Source: a virus
Lineage: Duplodnaviria > Caudoviricetes
DNA: 56,224 nucleotides
Virus record (IMG/VR): IMGVR_UViG_3300025131_000046
Span: 1-56,224 of that record
Strand: one strand, 5' to 3'
The notes below the pieces were generated by a model, which was not told where the DNA came from, ran no database searches, and was given only the letters and a program-made list of their open reading frames with translations. Both the position numbers and the translations under genes were made by a program. This document shows, in pieces, positions 3,734-56,224 of this stretch; within the stretch, counting starts at the first letter, position 1; every line of letters begins with the position of its first letter.

Positions 3734-4204
3734 ATGAATTTTGACATTGAGCCATACTGCCCGACATCTCATCGAGATGGTGTGCGACTTGTTGAGCGTC
3801 AAGCTCGGGAACATCCCTGGTCGAACGCTCGTTTAATCATGCTGCTGAACCTAAGAGCCACACGCACATTTGTAGCTTGTGACCAAGGCTTTGTTGCTGG
3901 GTTCGCCATCTCACATATTCACACACGCTCAAATACACTTGAACTAATTACAGTCTGCGTATTATCTGAATTCCGTAGACGAGGAATTGGGACACGCTTA
4001 ATCAATGCCGTGCTTGATTGTGCGGGCGACAATGAATTGGATGTGATCTGTGAGATTAAGGAAAGAAACCTTGATGTGCAGATGACGATGAAAGCTGTTG
4101 GGTTGTTATGTACCAAGATCGTTAGCTTTTCCCCAGAAGAAGACTCGCTGTATGTATTTCAGTTGGAACCTAACGCCAGCGTATTTACGCCATATGATTA
4201 TTGA
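3734..4204 (+). CDS. GNAT family N-acetyltransferase (RimI-like)
   Basis: Acetyl-CoA-binding motif VLSEFRRRGIGTRL and E.KERN motif; start placed at the ATG downstream of the promoter. Confidence 0.85.
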   Translation: MNFDIEPYCPTSHRDGVRLVERQAREHPWSNARLIMLLNLRATRTFVACDQGFVAGFAISHIHTRSNTLELITVCVLSEFRRRGIGTRLINAVLDCAGDNELDVICEIKERNLDVQMTMKAVGLLCTKIVSFSPEEDSLYVFQLEPNASVFTPYDY

Positions 4205-4235: not shown

Positions 4236-5150
4236 ATGGATTTTCCATGTGCGATTGTTGATTGTTTTGCTCAACATCCTAACTTGTGTCGATTGTCGAT
4301 TGCAAAAAAGACTGTGAAAGGAAAGCCAATTGATCAGGTAGCGGTTAAGTTTGTGATGGCAGAGAAAAAACTTCTTGAGTTTGTACCAGTAGATGAACTT
4401 GTGCCTGACATCTTTCTTGAGGCACCGACTGATGTTGTTCAGGGAAAGCCAGCATACACATTTGAGATTAAAGCTAATCAGGCTGTTGCTTTTCGACCAC
4501 AAGGTAAGGGAATCAATTTACCTCTTGGTCATAGACAAGATACTGATCCTCTTATTGGCGGCATTCAAATTACTGCTGACATGGGACAGAAGGCCGGTAC
4601 ACTCGGAGGTTTTATTCAAGACTCTCATGGTCAGTGGGTAATGCTGACATCTCATGCTGTTGTTCAGTCAACAGTTGAGGGAGTGTATCAAGCCGGGCCA
4701 AAAGGAAGAAAGATTGGAGCATATCGTAATTATCCTGCCGAACTTGGTTTTCCAGTTGCGGTACATATGGAGCCAGATTTAAGGTTTCAGCCACGAGCAA
4801 TTATGGGTATTGATGTACCTGTTTTGCTGGATGAATACACTGTGCCAACATTAGGTATGAAAGTAGTAAAATCTGGCAGAACAACAGGTGTTACAACAGG
4901 TGTTGTATCAGAAGTTAATACTTTTGCTTTCTTGTCTCAGGTAAATGGTGATGAGCACTACTCAGAATTTATGGCTGAGTTGTTTGTTGTTGAGTCTGAC
5001 ACCAAGGCTACATTTGCAACTAATGGTGATGCTGGAGCGTTAATCATTCATGATGGCGGGATTATTGGTATGGTTATTGGGGGTACAGAAAAGGAAACAC
5101 TTTGCTGTACATCAGAAGCAATCTCCGATTGCATTGACCAAACTGATTGA
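4236..5150 (+). CDS. trypsin-like (S1-fold) protease homologue, probably inactive
   Basis: GTLGG, LTSHAV, V.KSGRTTG.TTG motifs; GDAGA where GDSGS is expected. Confidence 0.75.
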   Translation: MDFPCAIVDCFAQHPNLCRLSIAKKTVKGKPIDQVAVKFVMAEKKLLEFVPVDELVPDIFLEAPTDVVQGKPAYTFEIKANQAVAFRPQGKGINLPLGHRQDTDPLIGGIQITADMGQKAGTLGGFIQDSHGQWVMLTSHAVVQSTVEGVYQAGPKGRKIGAYRNYPAELGFPVAVHMEPDLRFQPRAIMGIDVPVLLDEYTVPTLGMKVVKSGRTTGVTTGVVSEVNTFAFLSQVNGDEHYSEFMAELFVVESDTKATFATNGDAGALIIHDGGIIGMVIGGTEKETLCCTSEAISDCIDQTD

Positions 5151-14920: not shown

Positions 14921-16675
14921 ATGGTAAGAAAACGTAAAGTACCGTCTGCGATTGATAAACGACTTAAAGCTCTTGACAAGTTACTCAAAGCAGACCGACC
15001 TAAAGGCCAACTTGAAACAAATCAGATACATCGTTGTATGGATGATCTGAAGAACTGTAAAAACAAGGGGTTTGCTTGGGACGAAGATCAGGTAGAGAGA
15101 ACCCTACATCTCTTTACCTTGATGAAGCATTGGAAAGGAAAGTTCGCAAACCAGAAACTAACACTTGCTGATTGGCAGGAGCATTGTATTATTGCTCCGC
15201 TGTTTGGTTGGTATCTAGAAAAAACACGCAGTAAAGGTGGGTATCGCAGATTCCGTACTGCCGGAATTGAGATGCCTAGAAAGAATGGTAAAACTACTTT
15301 AGCTGCTGGTATAGGTCTTCAAGGATTGACAGCAGATGGGGAGCATGGAGCAGAGGTTTATTCAGCAGCTACAAAAAAAGATCAGGCTAACATTGCATTC
15401 AAGGATGCCAAGGGTTTGCTTGGTCCTGAATTAAAGCAGCTTTGCAAGGTCCATAGACATGCAATATCTTTCCTGCCCCTGGCCGGTACTTTTCAATCTT
15501 TATCTTCTGATAGTAATTCGTTGGATGGTCTTAACATCCATCGTTGCATTGTTGATGAACTGCATGCTCATAAGACCCGCGATTTATGGGATGTTCTGTT
15601 AACGGCTACTGGTGCTAGAGATCATCCTTTGATTCTCTGGATTTCTACCGCTGGTTATAACCGCCAATCAATCTGGTATGAACAAAGAGAGTATTGTTGT
15701 AGGATTCTTGACCCAAATGACACATTAACTAATGAATCATATTTTGTTTACATGACAGGTATTGATGATGGGGATGATTGGCTTGATCCTAAAATCTGGT
15801 GGAAGGCCAACCCCAACATGAATATCTCTCTCAATGAAGATTACTTAGTTAATGAGTTTACCAAAGCAGAAGACTCTCCTCAGTATGAGAACAAGGTTCG
15901 TAGGCTACATCTGAATCAGGTTACGGAGCAGGCTGTTAGAGCTATTGTGATGCGTAATTGGGATCGGTGTAATGAAGCTGCTCCTGATACAATCTCAGAT
16001 ACAGAAACTCTTAGGCTGTTTGAGGAACGGCTGAAAGGACAGCCATGCTGGGGTGCGATTGACTTAGCATCTACGAGAGACCTTTGTGCTTGGGCAAGAG
16101 TCTGGAGGCTAGATGGTAAGTTTTATACTCGTGTGCGTTACTATGCTCCTGAAGAAGCATCTAACGTTAGACAAGCCTATGATTTGCAAAGCTATAATAC
16201 TTGGGCACAAAAAGGATTGATTACACTGACTCCTGGGTCAGCTACAGATTACGACAGAATTCTCAGAGATATTGAGAACGACCATCAATTCTCTCCTGTT
16301 TTAACTATTGCTCTAGACCCACATAATTCATCTCAGTTTGCTCAGTCTCTGTTGAAGCTCGGATGGATGGAAGATGATGTTGTGAATTTTCCGCAGTGGG
16401 CAAGATACTATCATGAGCCGTGGACACGATTGGTTGAACTGGTTAACTCTCAGCACCTCCAGCATGGGGGAGATGAAGTTTTAAGATGGATGGCAGCAAA
16501 TACTGTTGCAAAGGAAGACTCAAACGGTTATGTTAAACCCGATAAACAAGCAGGCCAAGATAAAATTGATGGTATAGTTGCTCTAACAATGGCCTTAGCG
16601 ATGTCTCTTAATCAAGATGATGTCTTTGTACCGTTAGGTCGATTCTATGAAGAAAATGATATTGAAGTATTTTAG
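14921..16675 (+). CDS. terL: terminase large subunit
   Basis: L..WQ, PRKNGKTT Walker A, IVDELH Walker B, ISTAG, IDLAST.DL, KIDG nuclease motifs. Confidence 0.97.
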   Translation: MVRKRKVPSAIDKRLKALDKLLKADRPKGQLETNQIHRCMDDLKNCKNKGFAWDEDQVERTLHLFTLMKHWKGKFANQKLTLADWQEHCIIAPLFGWYLEKTRSKGGYRRFRTAGIEMPRKNGKTTLAAGIGLQGLTADGEHGAEVYSAATKKDQANIAFKDAKGLLGPELKQLCKVHRHAISFLPLAGTFQSLSSDSNSLDGLNIHRCIVDELHAHKTRDLWDVLLTATGARDHPLILWISTAGYNRQSIWYEQREYCCRILDPNDTLTNESYFVYMTGIDDGDDWLDPKIWWKANPNMNISLNEDYLVNEFTKAEDSPQYENKVRRLHLNQVTEQAVRAIVMRNWDRCNEAAPDTISDTETLRLFEERLKGQPCWGAIDLASTRDLCAWARVWRLDGKFYTRVRYYAPEEASNVRQAYDLQSYNTWAQKGLITLTPGSATDYDRILRDIENDHQFSPVLTIALDPHNSSQFAQSLLKLGWMEDDVVNFPQWARYYHEPWTRLVELVNSQHLQHGGDEVLRWMAANTVAKEDSNGYVKPDKQAGQDKIDGIVALTMALAMSLNQDDVFVPLGRFYEENDIEVF

Positions 16676-30835: not shown

Positions 30836-31864
30836 TTACACTTCGGTTAATCCTTCACCTTCTTCATCCTCTAGCGTGTCCTCATCTGGCTCAAAGACAT
30901 CATCTTCATCAAACTCTTCCTCTACTTCATCAATAATTTCGACATCGTAACCGCCACACCGGGGCACTTCAAGCTTCTTCAGGACAAGCTTAGCTAAGCT
31001 CATCTTTTCACCATCAATGAAAGCATTCCAAGCTTTCACGCACCAACTAATGATCTGATCCCGTGATGGAGGACTGGGTTTTGCTCGTTCACGATTCAGA
31101 CGCTCTCTCAGAGCATAGGCGGGATCGTCTTTCTTGAGTCCCGTACCTTGAGCAAACGCCAAGACAAACTCTTCTGCCTTGTCCCAAATCTTCCCCTCAC
31201 CGTCTGAGAATCCGAATAAAAACAATAGTCCACTCAAGTACCCCCGTGAAATCATAGCTGAGACAGCCTTGTCGTCATCTTGAGCATAAACAAACTCTGT
31301 TGCGTCTCTCAATTGAGGATGCTCCTCAATAAATTCGATCATCTCAGAATGTGGAAACTTAGGTGCATCTGATACTTTTTTGCCACCCATCCGCATCCAG
31401 ACCAGTCGTGCAGAGACCGCCAAATCCTTTGCTAATCTCTTAACCTCTTTGTCGTCATACTTATCTGCATCAAATTCTTGCCGTCTATACAACACATCGC
31501 CAGCAGTTCGCTTTTGTCCAATATCAATCGTATCTGCAAACTTGTGGTCAACACCATGTACCACGACCATGTCTACGGCGATTTGACCCCGCACACCATA
31601 CTTTTCCCTGTAATACTTCGGTTGTGCCTTCCTGGTGGTCTCAGCCATCACAATTGCCTGTAGACGATGCTGACCATCCAGCAATGTTTGGTCTGACGCA
31701 AAGATGATTGGCTCACCATTTACACGCCACTTGTTCCGCAACAACTCGTCCCTGTAGTTTCTCGCCAGAGAAGGACGTAGAGGACGATTATCTGTGTTCC
31801 TCTTCAACCATTCCTCAGCCATCTCTGCGTTGACATGTGCAACTTCGGATTTAATTGTCGCCAT
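30836..31864 (-). CDS. ParB/Sulfiredoxin-like domain protein
   Basis: N..NRPL, W..NGEPI.F, LLDGQHRL.A, D.G..RT.GD motifs; acidic tail. Confidence 0.8.
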   Translation of the reverse strand: MATIKSEVAHVNAEMAEEWLKRNTDNRPLRPSLARNYRDELLRNKWRVNGEPIIFASDQTLLDGQHRLQAIVMAETTRKAQPKYYREKYGVRGQIAVDMVVVHGVDHKFADTIDIGQKRTAGDVLYRRQEFDADKYDDKEVKRLAKDLAVSARLVWMRMGGKKVSDAPKFPHSEMIEFIEEHPQLRDATEFVYAQDDDKAVSAMISRGYLSGLLFLFGFSDGEGKIWDKAEEFVLAFAQGTGLKKDDPAYALRERLNRERAKPSPPSRDQIISWCVKAWNAFIDGEKMSLAKLVLKKLEVPRCGGYDVEIIDEVEEEFDEDDVFEPDEDTLEDEEGEGLTEV

Positions 31865-32257: not shown

Positions 32258-33766
32258 CTAAGTTACATAAACCAGTTCATTCTTAGCTCTTGTGATAGCT
32301 ACATATATAAGGTTCTTTTCTTGTTCTTGCTGCCATGCTTTAGTTGCCATTGGATGAGGCATAGGAGCATCCTTGTGCTTGAGAATAAAGACCCTATCTG
32401 ACTCAAGACCTTTTGCCTTATGCACACTGCTGAGAAGCACACCGTTCTTAACAGTGTCGGTAAAAACTTCTTCAATCTCCTTGATTGTGCCTTCGACTGT
32501 CTCCCTGTTGGCAGCAAAGATCAAAATACAGTCGTGACGATCTTGGAGATTAATTAGTCGATTTTCGTTGGGGCTTTTACGGGCACGTTCCTTCGTCTCT
32601 TCTTTCGCTAACCACGTACCAATTTTCTCGACAAGGTCAGTCGTGTCCTCTGCATTAAGTTTTTTGATTGTAGAAATCAGACCTTGTCCGATATCGCGTC
32701 CCTGGATATTTGCTGCTCGACCTTCACGCAGAAACTTAAAGCACTCACTCACAAGTGGAGCGTTCACGCGACACAAAATCATATCGCCAGCTTCAGCGTC
32801 TTCTCTGTAGCTCTTTTGTCCAGAGAAAGGCATGGAGCGTACAAGCCCGTCTGGGTTGTTCTCGTGAGCTTCAAACTCGGGTACATACTTTTGAGCCTCT
32901 TGCACAATAGCCCTACCACAGCGACGTGTAACCGTCAGAGGCAGCACTTGACAACCTCTCGTGGTTTCGGATAGACGATCATACATGTTGTCCATCGATT
33001 CAGCGTCCGCTCCTGCAAAACCATAAATTGCCTGATTCCGATCACCCACCAGAATCAATCGGCTACCTGCTTTCAATGCCAATTCTTGTTGGCACCTATT
33101 TAAGTCCTGGCTCTCGTCAACAATAAGTAATGCATGCTTAAAGACTGGCAAATTTAGAATAATTGGTAACCAAATCATGTCGTTGAAATCAATCTCTCGG
33201 TCTTCCTCAACCTCCTTGCATGCTTCCAATACTTGCGGAACCAATTCAAATACTTCGTCGGAACAACCATTGGTGTCAACGTCATAGTGCGAAGCCATCC
33301 CCGCCAATTCTTCTGTGTCATTTCCGCTGATCAGTGTCATCTTGCATAAACCAACTAACTTTTCTGTAATTCGAGCAATATTTGCTTTGGTCTTGTCTTG
33401 CCGTAATTCTTTAAATTCCATGCCGTACAAGCTACAGATCACATTCATTACTCGCCATTTATTGACTTTGCAGTAACCAACAGATTGCTTAATTGATCGG
33501 AATCCCATCGAGTGCAGCGTCATCGCTTCGCATCCTGCGGGAACCTGTTGCTGTAGTACAGTGGCAATCGATTTATTGAAAGCGACAGCAGCAATCTTCT
33601 TGGCTTTAACTGACAGTGCCATGGTTTCCCAAATCTCAGCCTGTTGAGGAGAGGGAGTAAAAATACTTGCTTTCCCCTTCATGACTTTGAGACCTTCAAC
33701 CATTGACGATGTCTTGCCGGTTCCAGCCAGTGCTTTAACGATCAAATGCTGTGGTTGACTGCTCAT
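32258..33766 (-). CDS. UvrD/Rep-like SF1 helicase
   Basis: ALAGTGKT, VAFNK, TLHS, VDESQD, VGD..QAIYGFAGA, RC, HKAKGLE, YVAITRAK; start placed at MSSQ, downstream of the promoter. Confidence 0.93.
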   Translation of the reverse strand: MSSQPQHLIVKALAGTGKTSSMVEGLKVMKGKASIFTPSPQQAEIWETMALSVKAKKIAAVAFNKSIATVLQQQVPAGCEAMTLHSMGFRSIKQSVGYCKVNKWRVMNVICSLYGMEFKELRQDKTKANIARITEKLVGLCKMTLISGNDTEELAGMASHYDVDTNGCSDEVFELVPQVLEACKEVEEDREIDFNDMIWLPIILNLPVFKHALLIVDESQDLNRCQQELALKAGSRLILVGDRNQAIYGFAGADAESMDNMYDRLSETTRGCQVLPLTVTRRCGRAIVQEAQKYVPEFEAHENNPDGLVRSMPFSGQKSYREDAEAGDMILCRVNAPLVSECFKFLREGRAANIQGRDIGQGLISTIKKLNAEDTTDLVEKIGTWLAKEETKERARKSPNENRLINLQDRHDCILIFAANRETVEGTIKEIEEVFTDTVKNGVLLSSVHKAKGLESDRVFILKHKDAPMPHPMATKAWQQEQEKNLIYVAITRAKNELVYVT

Positions 33767-33824
33767 GCTTTTCGTCTCTCTTCCAAAGTATTTTGTTGTT
33801 TCGTTCCTGCCTGCCATGGCTTCC

Positions 33825-33852
33825 ATTATACCAAACTATACAACGTTGGCAA
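33825..33852 (-). promoter_or_regulatory. sigma70-type promoter (leftward)
   Basis: TTGCCA-16 nt-TATAAT with TGn. Confidence 0.65.
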
Positions 33853-33939
33853 TCGCAAAGTTGTAAAAAAGTGAGAATCGGGTGCTCAAAATCGTCGTAA
33901 ACTATTTCTACCAAAAGACATAAAACTTCATAACTGGCC

Positions 33940-33968
33940 TTGACCCCATCCTCCAAACCTGCTACAAT
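33940..33968 (+). promoter_or_regulatory. sigma70-type promoter driving array 1-csrA-tas-array 2
   Basis: TTGACC-17 nt-TACAAT with TGn extended -10; start site falls just before the first repeat. Confidence 0.8.
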
Positions 33969-33985
33969 GCCCGCCATGAAAGGCA

Positions 33986-34182
33986 GAACGCAGCCATACA
34001 CGCTGATGCAGACAACAACAGGTAGGCAGAACGCAGCCATTGATTTAACCCAAGAACAGCGAACGTAAACGTAGTCTTTCGCTTCGAGCAACCCAAATGG
34101 CAAGAACGCAGCCAATTTTGAAGGTACTTGTACAATCGAAGAACGTAGCCAAGTGAAAAGATAATCCAGAGATTCCAAACGT
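33986..34182 (+). ncRNA. TIGR-like tandem dual-spacer guide RNA array 1 (5 units)
   Basis: Edge repeats (G/A)AACGYAGYCA at 33986, 34029, 34067, 34104, 34141 and 34177 (last degenerate); interiors parse as 8 nt + loop + 8 nt. Confidence 0.8.
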
Positions 34183-34202
34183 TGTTTAATCAGGAGGATT
34201 GT

Positions 34203-34379
34203 ATGCTTGTGCTAACTCGCAAACTAAACGAGGGCATTCTGATCGGGGATGACATTTACATTGTTGTAACAAATCTTTCCTCATCAAAAGTCAACTTAGG
34301 TATCAACGCACCAAATGATGTACCTATTTTACGGGCAGAATTGGTAGAGCAGCAAGAATCTGATAATCACGAAGATTAA
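34203..34379 (+). CDS. csrA: carbon storage regulator CsrA-like RNA-binding protein
   Basis: MLVLTRK..E.I.IGDDI.I.V.......V.LGI.AP.DVPILR.EL; AGGAGG RBS. Confidence 0.93.
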   Translation: MLVLTRKLNEGILIGDDIYIVVTNLSSSKVNLGINAPNDVPILRAELVEQQESDNHED

Positions 34380-34398
34380 CGAAAGGTCCAGTAGTAAT

Positions 34399-35313
34399 AT
34401 GTCCGAGTCCAAAACGCAAACGCTCGAAGCTGTTGATTATGCGGCTGTTAACTGGGAAGTTATTGACAAACTAACCAAAGAAATGATGGCGTCTGCTCTA
34501 ACTCTTACTCAGAGAGAAGCCCGACATTTAGTAGGCATGTATTACTCAGTACAAAACTTCCGTATTCATGCTGGGAACCACACCTCAGTAAAAACAGGGG
34601 CAGATGCTAATCCTGTCCTGGCTTGGGTGTTTTCTAACTGTCGCCTGATTGAGGAGAATATTAAACGGGCACTTGGCAGGTTTGCAGCAGAATTTACAGT
34701 TGGTCAATGGTTACAGAGTATCTGCGGCATCGGTCCTGTTATCTCGGCTGGCTTCATTGCTCACCTTGATGTTCGAGACCGACCTACCTATGGTCACTTT
34801 CACTCGTTTGCTGGTCTCAGTCCCCATATCAAATGGGAGAAAGGACAAAAAAGACCATTCAACGCTGCTCTTAAAGTCCTCTGTTACAAAGTAGGGGAGA
34901 GCTTTGTCAAAGTCCAGAACAACAAAAAGGACTACTACGGTAAGCTGTATGCTGTACACAAGGCTGGCCTAGTTCTGCGTAATGAAAGGGGTGACTTTGC
35001 TGAAGACTCTGCTCGAATTCTAACCGAAAAGAATTGGGGTAAAGACACTGATGCTTACGGGCATTATTCGGGTGGTAGACTACCGCCCGCTCATGTCCAT
35101 GCTCGTGCTCGTAGATATGTAGCCAAGCTACTTTTGTCACATCTTCATACCGTGATGTATGAAGACTATTACAAAACCAAAGCTCCTATTCCTTACCCAT
35201 TTTCTAAACATGCAAAAGAAGCTGCTATGCCTGATCATCGTCACTTGCTAGAAGTCCCTAACTGGCCGATGTTATCCTTTGGAAAAGACTTAGCCTGCCT
35301 GCTTGATTCCTAG
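34399..35313 (+). CDS. TasA-like Nop/IS110-related RNA-binding protein (no nuclease domain)
   Basis: N-terminal helical region, LQSICGIGPVISAG (IS110/Nop helix-hairpin), FHSFAGL.P, H.HARARRY..KL.LSHL; no N-terminal DEDD RuvC; flanked by dual-spacer arrays. Confidence 0.85.
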   Translation: MSESKTQTLEAVDYAAVNWEVIDKLTKEMMASALTLTQREARHLVGMYYSVQNFRIHAGNHTSVKTGADANPVLAWVFSNCRLIEENIKRALGRFAAEFTVGQWLQSICGIGPVISAGFIAHLDVRDRPTYGHFHSFAGLSPHIKWEKGQKRPFNAALKVLCYKVGESFVKVQNNKKDYYGKLYAVHKAGLVLRNERGDFAEDSARILTEKNWGKDTDAYGHYSGGRLPPAHVHARARRYVAKLLLSHLHTVMYEDYYKTKAPIPYPFSKHAKEAAMPDHRHLLEVPNWPMLSFGKDLACLLDS

Positions 35314-35685
35314 CCATGGTCGCAGATGATGATAATCTAAATAAGGCGAACGTAGTCAACAGGAGCAATAACCCAAGTAGAATGAACGTAGTCACACAAC
35401 GCTATAAACCATGCCACACGACCGCAGTTAGTGATTGAGATACTTCGCATACCCCGAGAACGTAGTCAAGGATTACGATACTTCGCACGCCCCGAGAACG
35501 TAGTTGGACTTTACAACAACTCAAATAGTAGGAACGTAGTCAGTGATTACGATACTTCGCATGCCCCGAGAACGTAGTCAATAATCCAGACATACACGTC
35601 TTCAGAACGTAGTCACAACCAGCAATTCCATACGTGTACTTTGAACGTAGTTAAAGACCAACAATAGCCCAGATGCTTTGAACGT
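35311..35685 (+). ncRNA. TIGR-like tandem dual-spacer guide RNA array 2 (10 units)
   Basis: GAACGTAGTCA-type repeats at 35348, 35384, 35420, 35458, 35496, 35532, 35570, 35605, 35643, 35680 (period 35-38), plus a half repeat TAGCCA overlapping the tas stop codon. Confidence 0.88.
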
Positions 35686-35700
35686 CTTATTGGAGTATGT

Positions 35701-36273
35701 ATGACAATCTATCGACGGATTGTGGATAAGTCTATTTCTCCCGAATTCAGAAAGCTACAGCGGCAATACAAAGACTGTAAAAAATGTGCCTTGTGTAAAA
35801 CTCGTAACCTTGTAATACATTATAGGGGCAATATACCCTGTGATATTGTTTTCCTTGGTGAAGCTCCAGGAGAGTCTGAAGACATTCTGGGTATTCCATT
35901 CATCGGACCAGCAGGTAAAAAACTTGATGAGGCATTAACTGAATTGCTGGCGGACATAACATTCCGGTTTGCAATTACCAACATTGTGTCTTGCATCCCT
36001 CTAGACGAGGACAATCGGATCAGATCACCAACAGCAAAAGAAGCAAAGGCGTGCCGCCCTCGACTCAATCGATTCTTAGCTCTTGCAAAGCCTAAGTTGA
36101 TTGTTACAATGGGCAAAATTGCTCAATCCTTTCTTCCAGAACAGTACAAGGATTATGCAGTGGGCGTTAAGCATCCTAGTGCTATTCTGCGTGCTCACAG
36201 TGCTCGTCAGCCACTAGAATTGCAACGTTTTGTACTGACAGTAAAATCAGCAATTGAGAAAAGAGTAGTATGA
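35701..36273 (+). CDS. uracil-DNA glycosylase family 4 (Fe-S)
   Basis: CKKCALC, GEAPG..E...G.PFIGPAG, TN.V.C.P, HPSAILR. Confidence 0.9.
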   Translation: MTIYRRIVDKSISPEFRKLQRQYKDCKKCALCKTRNLVIHYRGNIPCDIVFLGEAPGESEDILGIPFIGPAGKKLDEALTELLADITFRFAITNIVSCIPLDEDNRIRSPTAKEAKACRPRLNRFLALAKPKLIVTMGKIAQSFLPEQYKDYAVGVKHPSAILRAHSARQPLELQRFVLTVKSAIEKRVV

Positions 36274-36743
36274 AAATCCTTGCTCTTGATCCCGCTACAA
36301 AATGTGGCTGGTCTCACACAGACGTAGTAGGTGGCGTCTGGGACTTGTCGGTAAAGCGGGATGAATCATCCGGTATGAGGATGATCAAACTCCGCTCTAA
36401 GCTGTATGACTTGCTAGACGCTGTTGAAATCGATCTGGTGGTGTTTGAAGCTGCTCGTCATGCTGCTCCAAAGATGCAAGGTGCTCTCGTTACTCAAGCC
36501 AAATTACAATCTGTAATTGAGATTTGGGGTGATGACCAAGGAATTCAATACCGTGGTTACTCACCTACCGAAATTAAGAAATTTGCTACTGGTAAAGGTA
36601 ATGCATCCAAAGCGATGATGATAGAAACGGCTCAAGATAAATGGGGAGACATCATCGAGGATGACAATCATGCTGACGCCCTTTGGTTACTGGCGTTAGC
36701 TACCGACCAATATGGTCCTCGAACTAGGAGGTTTGGAAAATGA
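36270..36743 (+). CDS. RuvC-like Holliday junction resolvase
   Basis: ILALDP...GWS, VVFE, IKKFATGKGNASK, DDNHADA. Confidence 0.88.
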   Translation: MKILALDPATKCGWSHTDVVGGVWDLSVKRDESSGMRMIKLRSKLYDLLDAVEIDLVVFEAARHAAPKMQGALVTQAKLQSVIEIWGDDQGIQYRGYSPTEIKKFATGKGNASKAMMIETAQDKWGDIIEDDNHADALWLLALATDQYGPRTRRFGK

Positions 36744-36997
36744 CCGAAATACATTGGTTCTTTCTTGGGATTGGTATGGGCTGGATTTCTCTATCTGTAC
36801 TCGCTCTCTTGTTTCGTGACCCCAGTTGTTCTCCGCAATCTTCATCCCCAACAACTAGTAGTCTTGTTGTTAAAGGAGCTATGAATCATTATATTCATGA
36901 TTGTAGAGATGATGATAATGATGATGATGATGATGATGATGATGATATCTTGTTGGGGACTGATCCGAGTCAGTGGAGAACATGGGAGATGAACTAA
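36740..36997 (+). CDS. small membrane protein with poly-Asp tract
   Basis: N-terminal TM segment; (GAT)n run around 36908-36946. Confidence 0.6.
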   Translation: MTEIHWFFLGIGMGWISLSVLALLFRDPSCSPQSSSPTTSSLVVKGAMNHYIHDCRDDDNDDDDDDDDDILLGTDPSQWRTWEMN

Positions 36998-49202: not shown

Positions 49203-49422
49203 AATCGATTTTGTCGGGGTTTCTTTATGGGTAGAAACCCCGGTAGATTTTGTTATCTGCTGGGGTTTCTTTACGTACCTGCCCCAATCGATTTTGTCGG
49301 GGGTATGTTCAATCGATTTTGTCGAGGATCACCAATCGATTTTCTTGGGGATGCAATCGATTTTGTCGGGGGTATTACCAATCGATTTTGTCGGGGGTAT
49401 TACCAATCGATTTTGTCGGGGG
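49203..49422 (+). repeat. cluster of 7 AATCGATTTT(GTCGGGG) direct repeats
   Basis: Copies at 49203, 49286, 49311, 49334, 49355, 49380, 49405. Confidence 0.9.
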
Positions 49423-52649: not shown

Positions 52650-52800
52650 AATCGATTTTACCGCGGTCGATTTTATTGAGGGTTAGCAATCGATTTTACT
52701 AAGGGTCTATATAAGCTATCAATCGATTTTGCTGGGGTCGATTTTACTAAGGGTTAGTGATCGATTTTATCGAGGGTCTTACTAATCGATTTTGCTGGGG
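52650..52800 (+). repeat. second cluster of 7 TCGATTTT repeats
   Basis: TCGATTTT at 52652, 52667, 52690, 52723, 52738, 52761, 52786, mostly followed by a G-run. Confidence 0.85.
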
Positions 52801-56090: not shown

Positions 56091-56224
56091 TATACAATCG
56101 ATTTTATGGTGATCGATTTTATGGTAGGGAATACCCGCTAAATGTACTACGTACACTAAGGCTTGGCTAGGTCTATATAAGAGGGGGGAGGGGCTGTTTT
56201 AGTGAACAGGTGTTATATAGGGAC

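Follow-up and report, generated by a model that had tools for sequence, protein, structure and literature searches.

A phage TIGR-TasA guide array with the 8-nucleotide spacer grammar of its lineage and an irregular loop

In this study, we analysed the full-length virus record IMGVR_UViG_3300025131_000046 of a marine phage (56,224 bases, hereafter the window) and identified in it a TIGR-TasA system, a member of the TIGR-Tas family, in which guide arrays lie on both flanks of tasA, the gene of a Nop-domain protein, and on the same strand as that gene. The protein belongs to the SpTasH-like dual-repeat lineage and is accompanied by a mildly unusual array. The region that follows tasA (array 2, 35314..35690, + strand) is probably the downstream guide array of this system, in which the loop repeat has degenerated into a linker that is free in sequence and length. 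This reading is carried by the anatomy of the array, the conservation of its positions, the family and fold of the protein, and the 8-nucleotide (nt) spacers with CA before and GA or AA after them, which are the norm of the lineage. The original prediction, made from the letters of the window, had considered this grammar atypical and perhaps the sign of a distinct subfamily. The main value of our analysis is to correct that record: the grammar is the norm of its lineage, not that of a new subfamily, and its only unusual part is the irregular loop between the two guide segments.

Array 2 opens with CCA, a 5'-truncated edge, immediately 3' of the tasA stop codon (35311-35313), runs through ten units and closes with a 3'-truncated edge (35680-35690) that reads GAACGT and then diverges; a conserved edge with a 5'-truncated first copy and a 3'-truncated last copy is a feature of dual-repeat arrays. 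Each unit is composed of an 11-nt edge, GAACGTAGTCA or one of its variants, an 8-nt spacer A, a loop of 8-15 nt and an 8-nt spacer B. The ten edge copies start at 35348, 35384, 35420, 35458, 35496, 35532, 35570, 35605, 35643 and 35680, with a spacing of 35-38 nt; the units measure 42, 36, 36, 38, 38, 36, 38, 35, 38 and 37 nt, and their loops 15, 9, 9, 11, 11, 9, 11, 8, 11 and 10 nt. These ten interiors, split into spacer, loop and spacer, agree letter for letter with those originally listed. The 9-mer GAACGTAGT is exact in eight of the ten edges, and a search of the whole window found exact copies only there, all eight within 35348-35651; with at most one mismatch there are 24 matches in the window against a shuffle mean of 9.61, a count that none of 100 shuffles reached. 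The second array (array 1, 33974-34187, + strand) lies upstream of tasA and consists of a leader CCA, a partial interior of 9 nt and five full units, which brings the total to the 15 units that had been predicted. Its edge is GAACGCAGCCA or a variant, with starts at 33986, 34029, 34067, 34104, 34141 and 34177, the last of these being a degenerate 3' edge (34177-34187). The units of array 1 are 43, 38, 37, 37 and 36 nt long, with loops of 16, 11, 10, 10 and 9 nt.

To follow up a check that the original prediction had proposed, the 15 full units of both arrays were aligned and a table of conservation per position was built, in which the anchors are conserved and the 8-nt blocks are variable. The edge holds 1.1-2.0 bit per position. 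Positions +1 to +7 after the edge are variable (at most 0.33 bit), position +9 is G or A and position +10 is A, each in 13 of the 15 units. Counted back from the next edge, C stands at -10 in 13 units and A at -9 in 14, and seven of the eight variable positions from -8 to -1 hold at most 0.36 bit, with -7 being G or A in 14 units (0.71 bit). Each unit therefore presents two short variable spacers between box C-like and box D-like flanks (CA-N8-RA and CA-N8-GA, where R is a purine), and the CA and GA/AA anchors are spaced exactly 8 nt on either side of the loop in 13-14 of the 15 units. Binomial tails, computed against the base composition of the window, are 3e-6 for A at +10 (3e-5 when three near-duplicate units are counted once), 1.5e-7 for C at -10 and 1.7e-7 for A at -9; the tails of these three anchors remain below 4e-5 with the near-duplicates counted once, and R at +9 is weaker than the other three (0.004). 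These results, together with the homology of the protein to Tas proteins, bear out the predicted identity as a TIGR array, the 8-nt length of the spacers and the dinucleotides around them. Position +8 after the edge, the last of spacer A, is A or C in 14 of the 15 units, a bias that is absent in relatives and that we discarded as small-sample noise. A CRISPR array was also ruled out: the repeat is of 11 nt, the interiors carry conserved anchors at fixed offsets, and Pfam and PHROG scans found no cas-like gene among the scanned neighbours.

The variation in length is confined to the loop, as the original prediction had it. Between the fixed spacers, the loops of the 15 units measure 8-16 nt and have 13 distinct sequences; what they retain is limited to a purine-A at the start and a CA at the end, the former frequently as RATA (T at +11 in ten units, A at +12 in nine). 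Unit lengths across both arrays range from 35 to 43 nt, with five of the 15 at the modal length and four at 36 nt. The loop repeat of constant sequence and length and the uniform 36-nt unit, both features of dual-repeat arrays, are missing. The fact that the anchors were kept while the rest of the loop drifted points to selection on function and not to simple decay. As part of our overall explanation, we consider it probable that the loop repeat has become a degenerate linker of free sequence and length. More tentatively, and at slightly less than an even chance, we propose that in this lineage the loop of the guide RNA (tigRNA) is a free linker, that TasA needs only two dinucleotide anchors, and that a dual-repeat-type Tas protein bearing the Y/H processing pair makes and uses guides of mixed length (35-43 nt in the window, with loops of 6-26 nt in the relatives L148 and L109), a proposal linked to a mode of array growth in which whole units are duplicated and their spacers then acquire point changes. 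If true, this would contradict the published generalisation of uniform 36-nt dual-repeat guides, and it would show that natural tigRNAs tolerate internal insertions, which one preprint (10.64898/2026.07.30.739400) describes as avoided for fear of disturbing the tigRNA. The variability of the loop, 8-16 nt in the window and 6-26 nt in a few relatives, thus bears on guide design. Forms intermediate between the two array types are mentioned by Faure 2025 (PMC12045711), and extended loops (over 12 nt) are annotated on the Tas tree of Xu 2026 (bioRxiv 10.64898/2026.09.09.750476). It is important to consider that irregular-loop arrays, the clade or the contig itself may already figure in the supplement of Faure 2025 or in the TIGRSafari catalogue.

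Special attention was given to the grammar of the arrays of related TasA proteins. The relatives were found by an alignment-based search, a single-protein locus search in IMG/VR having given none, and the loci comprised 80 from IMG/VR (where 455 of 478 candidate stretches encode relatives) and 80 from metagenomes (408 of 598). Arrays of four or more units were present in 117 of the 160 fetched loci, many of the others being short contigs; duplicates due to overlap between the two collections were removed by shared units. The grammar was counted in 89 distinct arrays with at least five units of modal length. Of their 181 variable runs, 134 are exactly 8 nt and 165 are 7-9 nt long, some of the 7- and 9-nt runs, like some of the labels of variable length used below, being created by the thresholds of the parser (70% consensus, 1-2 anchor mismatches). 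The dinucleotide before the run is CA in 137 cases, and the one after it is GA in 155. In 73 of the 89 arrays the modal unit measures 36 nt, and across 1801 distinct CA-N8-GA segments each of the eight spacer positions has a near-uniform base composition. A very large lineage of phage TasA proteins, like SpTasH, has as its standard grammar an 8-nt spacer with CA before and GA or AA after it; the label of atypical grammar given to the array of the window has to be withdrawn.

What distinguishes the window from most of these arrays is the second repeat, which in the relatives can be recognised and has a fixed length, in most cases 10 nt (GAxxxxxCCA). Of the 83 non-redundant arrays that have six units or more, 67 keep at least 75% of their units at one length, and five are irregular, with under half of the units at one length (loci L016, L109, L129, L136 and L148). 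L016 may be an artefact of the parser; the other four, for which the units were inspected, have constant anchors with inserts between them, and the loops among those listed measure 6-26 nt. Those of L148 span 9-26 nt, most of them 13-22 nt and mostly of the form GAGAG...TCCA, and those of L109 span 6-24 nt. In L109, from position 3997 onward, it is the edge-like repeat (GAGC...GCCR) that varies in length, from 6 to 24 nt, and the loop-like repeat is constant. The second repeat of L014, from position 4552 onward, is only 7 nt long (GAACACA), barely beyond two anchors. A scan of IMG/VR with the edge repeat of the window found six further loci with two or three copies only and no arrays, and no close relative of the window array came up in that scan.

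The product of tasA (34399..35313, + strand) is a 304-residue protein, P0001, with 2895 homologues at E <= 0.001 among 3794 candidates, of which the closest outside its own 99% cluster shares at most 56% identity. A profile of 33 of these homologues matches TaTasR (9mty) with an E value of 1e-20 over chain residues 117-323, an alignment that begins downstream of the RuvC part of TaTasR, and it also matches SpTasH (2.8e-9) and IS621 (2e-6). The sole Pfam match within P0001 is PF02371, the RNA-binding segment of IS110-type proteins, at residues 104-144; Pfam finds no nuclease domain (HNH or RuvC), and a Nop domain to which no nuclease is fused is what defines a TasA. The AlphaFold model has a mean predicted local distance difference test score (pLDDT) of 86.6 and a predicted template modelling score (pTM) of 0.83. 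In a Foldseek search of the PDB with this model, the top ten matches are all TIGR-TasR or TasH chains with probability 1.00, followed by IS110-family recombinases, and the Nop-type RNA-binding domain is homologous to that of characterised Tas proteins. Modelled as a homodimer, P0001 scores 0.62 against 0.00 for the best of three controls, a mark that is reached by 20 of 30 proteins solved as one-chain pairs and by one of the 23 that were solved as single chains. At least 77% of contacts recur between the runs, the partner pLDDT is at least 77, and the predicted interface, residues 25-91, is made of helices, within an N-terminal part (residues 14-97) that is modelled as long helices. It should be noted that this pass may reflect mere likeness to the solved Tas dimers. 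The residues Y266 and H280 of P0001 align, in invariant columns, with Y289 and H296 of SpTasH, for which a catalytic role in processing has been reported (PMC13421893). The PHROG family that holds P0001 (phrog_4285, E 4.7e-37) is annotated as 'transposase, integration and excision', and one JGI relative is named an IS110-family transposase; these annotations are misleading, and the proteins are Tas. In the isolate-phage collection, neither tblastn of TasA nor megablast of 10 kb gave a match, and this TasA clade is absent from that collection, the distant SpTasH apart.

Among characterised systems, we read the SpTIGR array of Salicola phage CGphi29 (NC_020844, ~15360-15760) directly. It has two 10-nt repeats, which start with AA and end with CCA, 8-nt spacers and units of 36 nt; Faure 2025 describes the TasH array of this phage as having only 16 variable nt, and Guan 2026 (bioRxiv 10.64898/2026.08.11.744272) names an '8 nt Spacer A' of SpTasH and presents a structure that pairs 8 nt. 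SpTIGR-TasH (Faure 2025; PDB 9w03 and others) and the system of the window are both phage-borne, with spacers A and B of 8 nt, a purine-A directly after the spacers and CCA or YCA (Y, pyrimidine) directly before them. One inserted base and two substitutions separate the SpTIGR edge, AAGCGAGCCA, from that of array 1, the Nop domains are homologous, and the Y/H processing pair aligns. However, SpTasH carries an N-terminal HNH nuclease and cuts DNA, whereas P0001 is without a nuclease domain, and SpTIGR combines a conserved loop repeat of 10 nt with units that are all 36 nt long and with a terminator, whereas the window has mostly unique loops, units of varying length and no terminator-like site after array 2. 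According to Faure 2025, dual-repeat arrays have repeats of 8-12 nt and mostly 9-nt spacers, with exceptions, and TasR arrays have CCA as box C and UG as box D, motifs that 'could diverge'. The statement in the original prediction that characterised tigRNAs use 9-nt spacers bounded by CCA and UG is right for TaTasR and FpTasA only and wrong for SpTIGR, with its 8-nt spacers followed by AA. These two dual-repeat systems share with the window the plan of the unit (edge, spacer A, loop, spacer B) and a dimer of Nop-domain proteins, predicted in our case; they target with tandem spacers, as the window system presumably would, but their spacers are of 9 nt, their box D is UG, and TaTasR has an active RuvC domain.

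The TasA relatives with 40-56% identity resemble the window in having arrays co-oriented with tasA, upstream and/or downstream of it, in the CA-N8-GA grammar and in an edge of the GAxCGxAGCCA type; they differ in mostly keeping one unit length and a second repeat. The stem-loop TIGR-TasA systems (PlTasA, BlTasA and MbTasA) also have a nuclease-free TasA and two short spacers (8-12 nt) per unit, their loops may vary in size and sequence as in the window, and they have been shown to bind DNA and repress transcription (Faure 2025; Xu 2026; Guan 2026). Their variable palindromic stems, the lack of a Y/H loop and processing at a CUU motif have no counterpart in the window.

These comparisons bear on four other explanations. 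The distinct TIGR subfamily suggested by the original prediction would be a separate lineage in which 8-nt spacers, a GA/AA box D and long loops co-evolved with TasA. The window TasA does sit on a long branch (0.75) and shows low identity outside its own cluster, the 11-nt edge is common only to the nearest rows of the tree, L092 and L005-like arrays, and the published TasR logos show CCA and UG with 9-nt spacers (PMC12045711). Nevertheless, spacers of 8 nt between CA and GA are what the 89 arrays of relatives normally have, and SpTIGR has the same spacer length with CCA before and AA after. The rows with which the window TasA is joined, moreover, have fixed loops: of 10 nt in L092, which has an 11-nt edge, and of 7 nt in L014, where it stands beside a 12-nt repeat. 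On a quick FastTree of 89 TasA proteins, with the long window branch, the label of variable length needs nine changes for ten rows, against a mean of 9.6 for shuffled labels, and 164 of 500 shuffles were as low as nine; some of the ten labels are probably parser artefacts. This scatter suggests that the variable-length trait arises sporadically and defines no subfamily, and we regard this alternative as quite improbable. If, on the other hand, the array were decaying and non-functional, with its loop repeat eroding after the loss of selection, one would see what is seen in the many distinct loops of differing length, in one unit without loop anchors and in the degenerate edges. It would also fit that no terminator-like site was found between array 2 and the start codon of the next gene at 35701, and that no RNA run is on record among the 18 public runs holding at least part of the stretch (17 marine metagenome, one seawater metagenome). 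Yet tasA is intact, P0001 keeps every invariant column of the 33-sequence alignment as well as the Y/H pair, the exact 9-mer persists in most array 2 edges, and the anchor dinucleotides stand at fixed 8-nt offsets in nearly all units, whereas neutral decay would not spare the anchors. The identity of at least 99% over the stretch in contigs of four marine runs is a weak argument in the same direction, as the divergence is too low to show selection. Decay is, in our opinion, unlikely.

The two remaining alternatives concern the type of the array. Standard 9-nt spacers would result if one conserved flanking base on each side belonged to the spacer, and it is a fact that most published dual-repeat arrays have 9-nt spacers (PMC12045711) and that the window units with a 9-nt loop total 36 nt, as canonical arrays do. 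The flanking bases are nevertheless conserved, both at the edge (the last base is A and the first base is G, each in 13 of 15 units) and in the loop (A at +10 in 13 and A at -9 in 14), the relatives have eight uniformly variable positions, and the SpTasH structure pairs 8 nt (Guan 2026). Such spacers, whose presence was given as a ground for abandoning the original prediction, were not found, and a 9-nt parse is highly improbable. A TIGR array of the stem-loop type, with the edges serving as stems like those of PlTasA or BlTasA, appears hardly credible in its turn. Variable intervening sequences of differing size have been described for that type (PMC12045711; Xu 2026), but the edges of the window are one conserved 11-nt repeat and not variable palindromes, and the folding of the 15 units is no stronger than that of shuffles (z from -0.5 to +1.4). 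The minimum free energy is 0 in 14 of the 15 loops, and no hairpins were found in the long loops. P0001, furthermore, carries the Y/H loop, which according to Xu 2026 occurs only in dual-repeat systems and is missing from all stem-loop clades.

Several observations weigh against our own reading of a dual-repeat-lineage array with a degenerate loop. The lack of a terminator-like site and of RNA runs, named above in connection with decay, is among them, since Faure 2025 describes arrays with a terminator. Xu 2026 argues that the fixed length of 36 nt positions the cut site, and the processing of 35-43-nt guides by the Y/H dyad is our conjecture. The distance from Y to H is 14 residues in P0001 against seven in SpTasH, and the loop between them is modelled at a pLDDT below 50, so that the processing competence of P0001 is not assured. 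In array 1, the unit at 34115-34140 has neither a purine-A after spacer A nor a CA before spacer B, and a shifted parse of it would shorten spacer B to 6 nt; this unit may be dead. The edges at 34067 and 35420 are degenerate, with two to three substitutions, and some of the units with missing anchors or degenerate edges may be dead. The census of arrays in relatives relies on a heuristic k-mer and anchor parser. Finally, a split-spacer search for self-targets in the 56-kb phage genome, run in four arrangements, of which two are mirror images, and with gaps of 0-12 nt, returned 38 hits with at most two mismatches, two of them with one mismatch and none perfect, which is the chance level, and no arrangement was enriched. 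Against public collections of ~600 Gb, 16 split bases are expected to give hundreds of chance matches per unit, a point also made by Xu 2026.

The mechanism that we propose for the degenerate-loop array is as follows. A promoter at about 33940-33968 would drive one transcript through array 1, csrA, tasA and array 2. A TasA dimer, as suggested by homology, fold and the dimer model, would bind each unit through two pairs of box C (CA, often CCA or TCA) and box D (GA or AA) anchors, one pair lying in the 11-nt edge and the other at the ends of the loop. From the alignment with SpTasH, the Y266/H280 pair may cut inside the edge repeat, and such cleavage would release guides of about 35-43 nt instead of uniform 36-nt ones. 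By analogy with the solved relatives, the two 8-nt spacers of each guide would pair with opposite strands of adjacent DNA. The expected outcome, given that TasA is free of a nuclease domain, would be DNA binding and blockage without cleavage, for instance a repression of transcription like that seen with other TasA proteins; Xu 2026 reports RNA-guided repression of this kind by TasA and by dead TasR. The role could be the silencing of host genes, competition with other mobile elements or regulation by the phage of itself.

With respect to natural variation, contigs of the four marine runs, which come from four studies, show a single difference in the arrays, a T>A at 35342 in a spacer of one run; the divergence among these runs is too low for the turnover of spacers and repeats to be compared. 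Run X4 has a contig that matches the stretch in two separate pieces, with ~342 further letters of the contig lying between them, near 34335-34340 at the 3' end of csrA, and in run X6 there is a loose end of 70 letters before 34335. It seems that the sequence between csrA and tasA is enlarged or altered in some variants of this phage.

Units 4, 5 and 7 of array 2 (35431..35569, + strand) are the near-duplicates mentioned above; they have a common 11-nt loop, and their spacers differ at three to six of 16 positions. Near-duplicate units also occur in the relatives L092, L148, L160 and L005. Counted over the relatives, pairs of units with at most four spacer differences number 22 of 8441 within arrays versus 15 of 200000 sampled between arrays, an enrichment of about 35-fold, and at least one such pair is present in 19 of 95 arrays. 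These counts suggest that units are duplicated and undergo point changes as an array grows, and the excess of near-duplicates offers a testable lead on how TIGR arrays gain spacers.

The elements of the locus follow one another on the + strand as promoter-like site, array 1 (five units), csrA, tasA and array 2 (ten units). The promoter-like site (33940..33968; TTGACC, 17 nt, TACAAT with a TG) matches the hexamers at 10 of 12 positions and is the top-scoring + strand site within 33600-36400, as a consensus match only; it ends six bases ahead of array 1. The csrA-like gene (34203..34379, + strand) encodes 58 amino acids and matches the Pfam family CsrA (PF02599, E 1.4e-20) and phrog_9500, a CsrA-like regulator. 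The gene csrA is also found directly upstream of tasA in L103 (1724-1906, Pfam 3e-23) and just downstream of it in L024 (3484-3615, tblastn 1e-11), so that it adjoins tasA in three of 161 loci, the window included. This proximity could be due to chance in phage early regions or reflect a functional link of an RNA-binding regulator to the guide transcript. No ParB-like gene was seen beside tasA in the window, where csrA takes that place, or among ten upstream open reading frames (ORFs) of the ten relatives tested (Pfam, E <= 0.01); an ORF of the window at 30836-31864 has only a sub-threshold match to ddrB-ParB (Pfam, E 0.097). The locus lies within a replication and recombination module, adjoined by genes for a helicase, a UDG-family protein, a RuvC-like resolvase, an exonuclease and a Sak4-like protein. 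An Rfam search of 33500-36000 gave no match.

Two further repeats were observed elsewhere in the window. The sequence ATCGATTTT has fifteen exact copies, all on the + strand, in three clusters (49204-49414, 52651-52793 and 56097-56120), where 0.92 copies are expected and none of 100 shuffles reached fifteen. The copies sit inside tandem repeats of 23-25 nt, and these could be iterons, operators or phage promoters. Finally, 13 GAT codons in a row at 36908-36946, inside the ORF 36740-36997, would encode a poly-Asp stretch.

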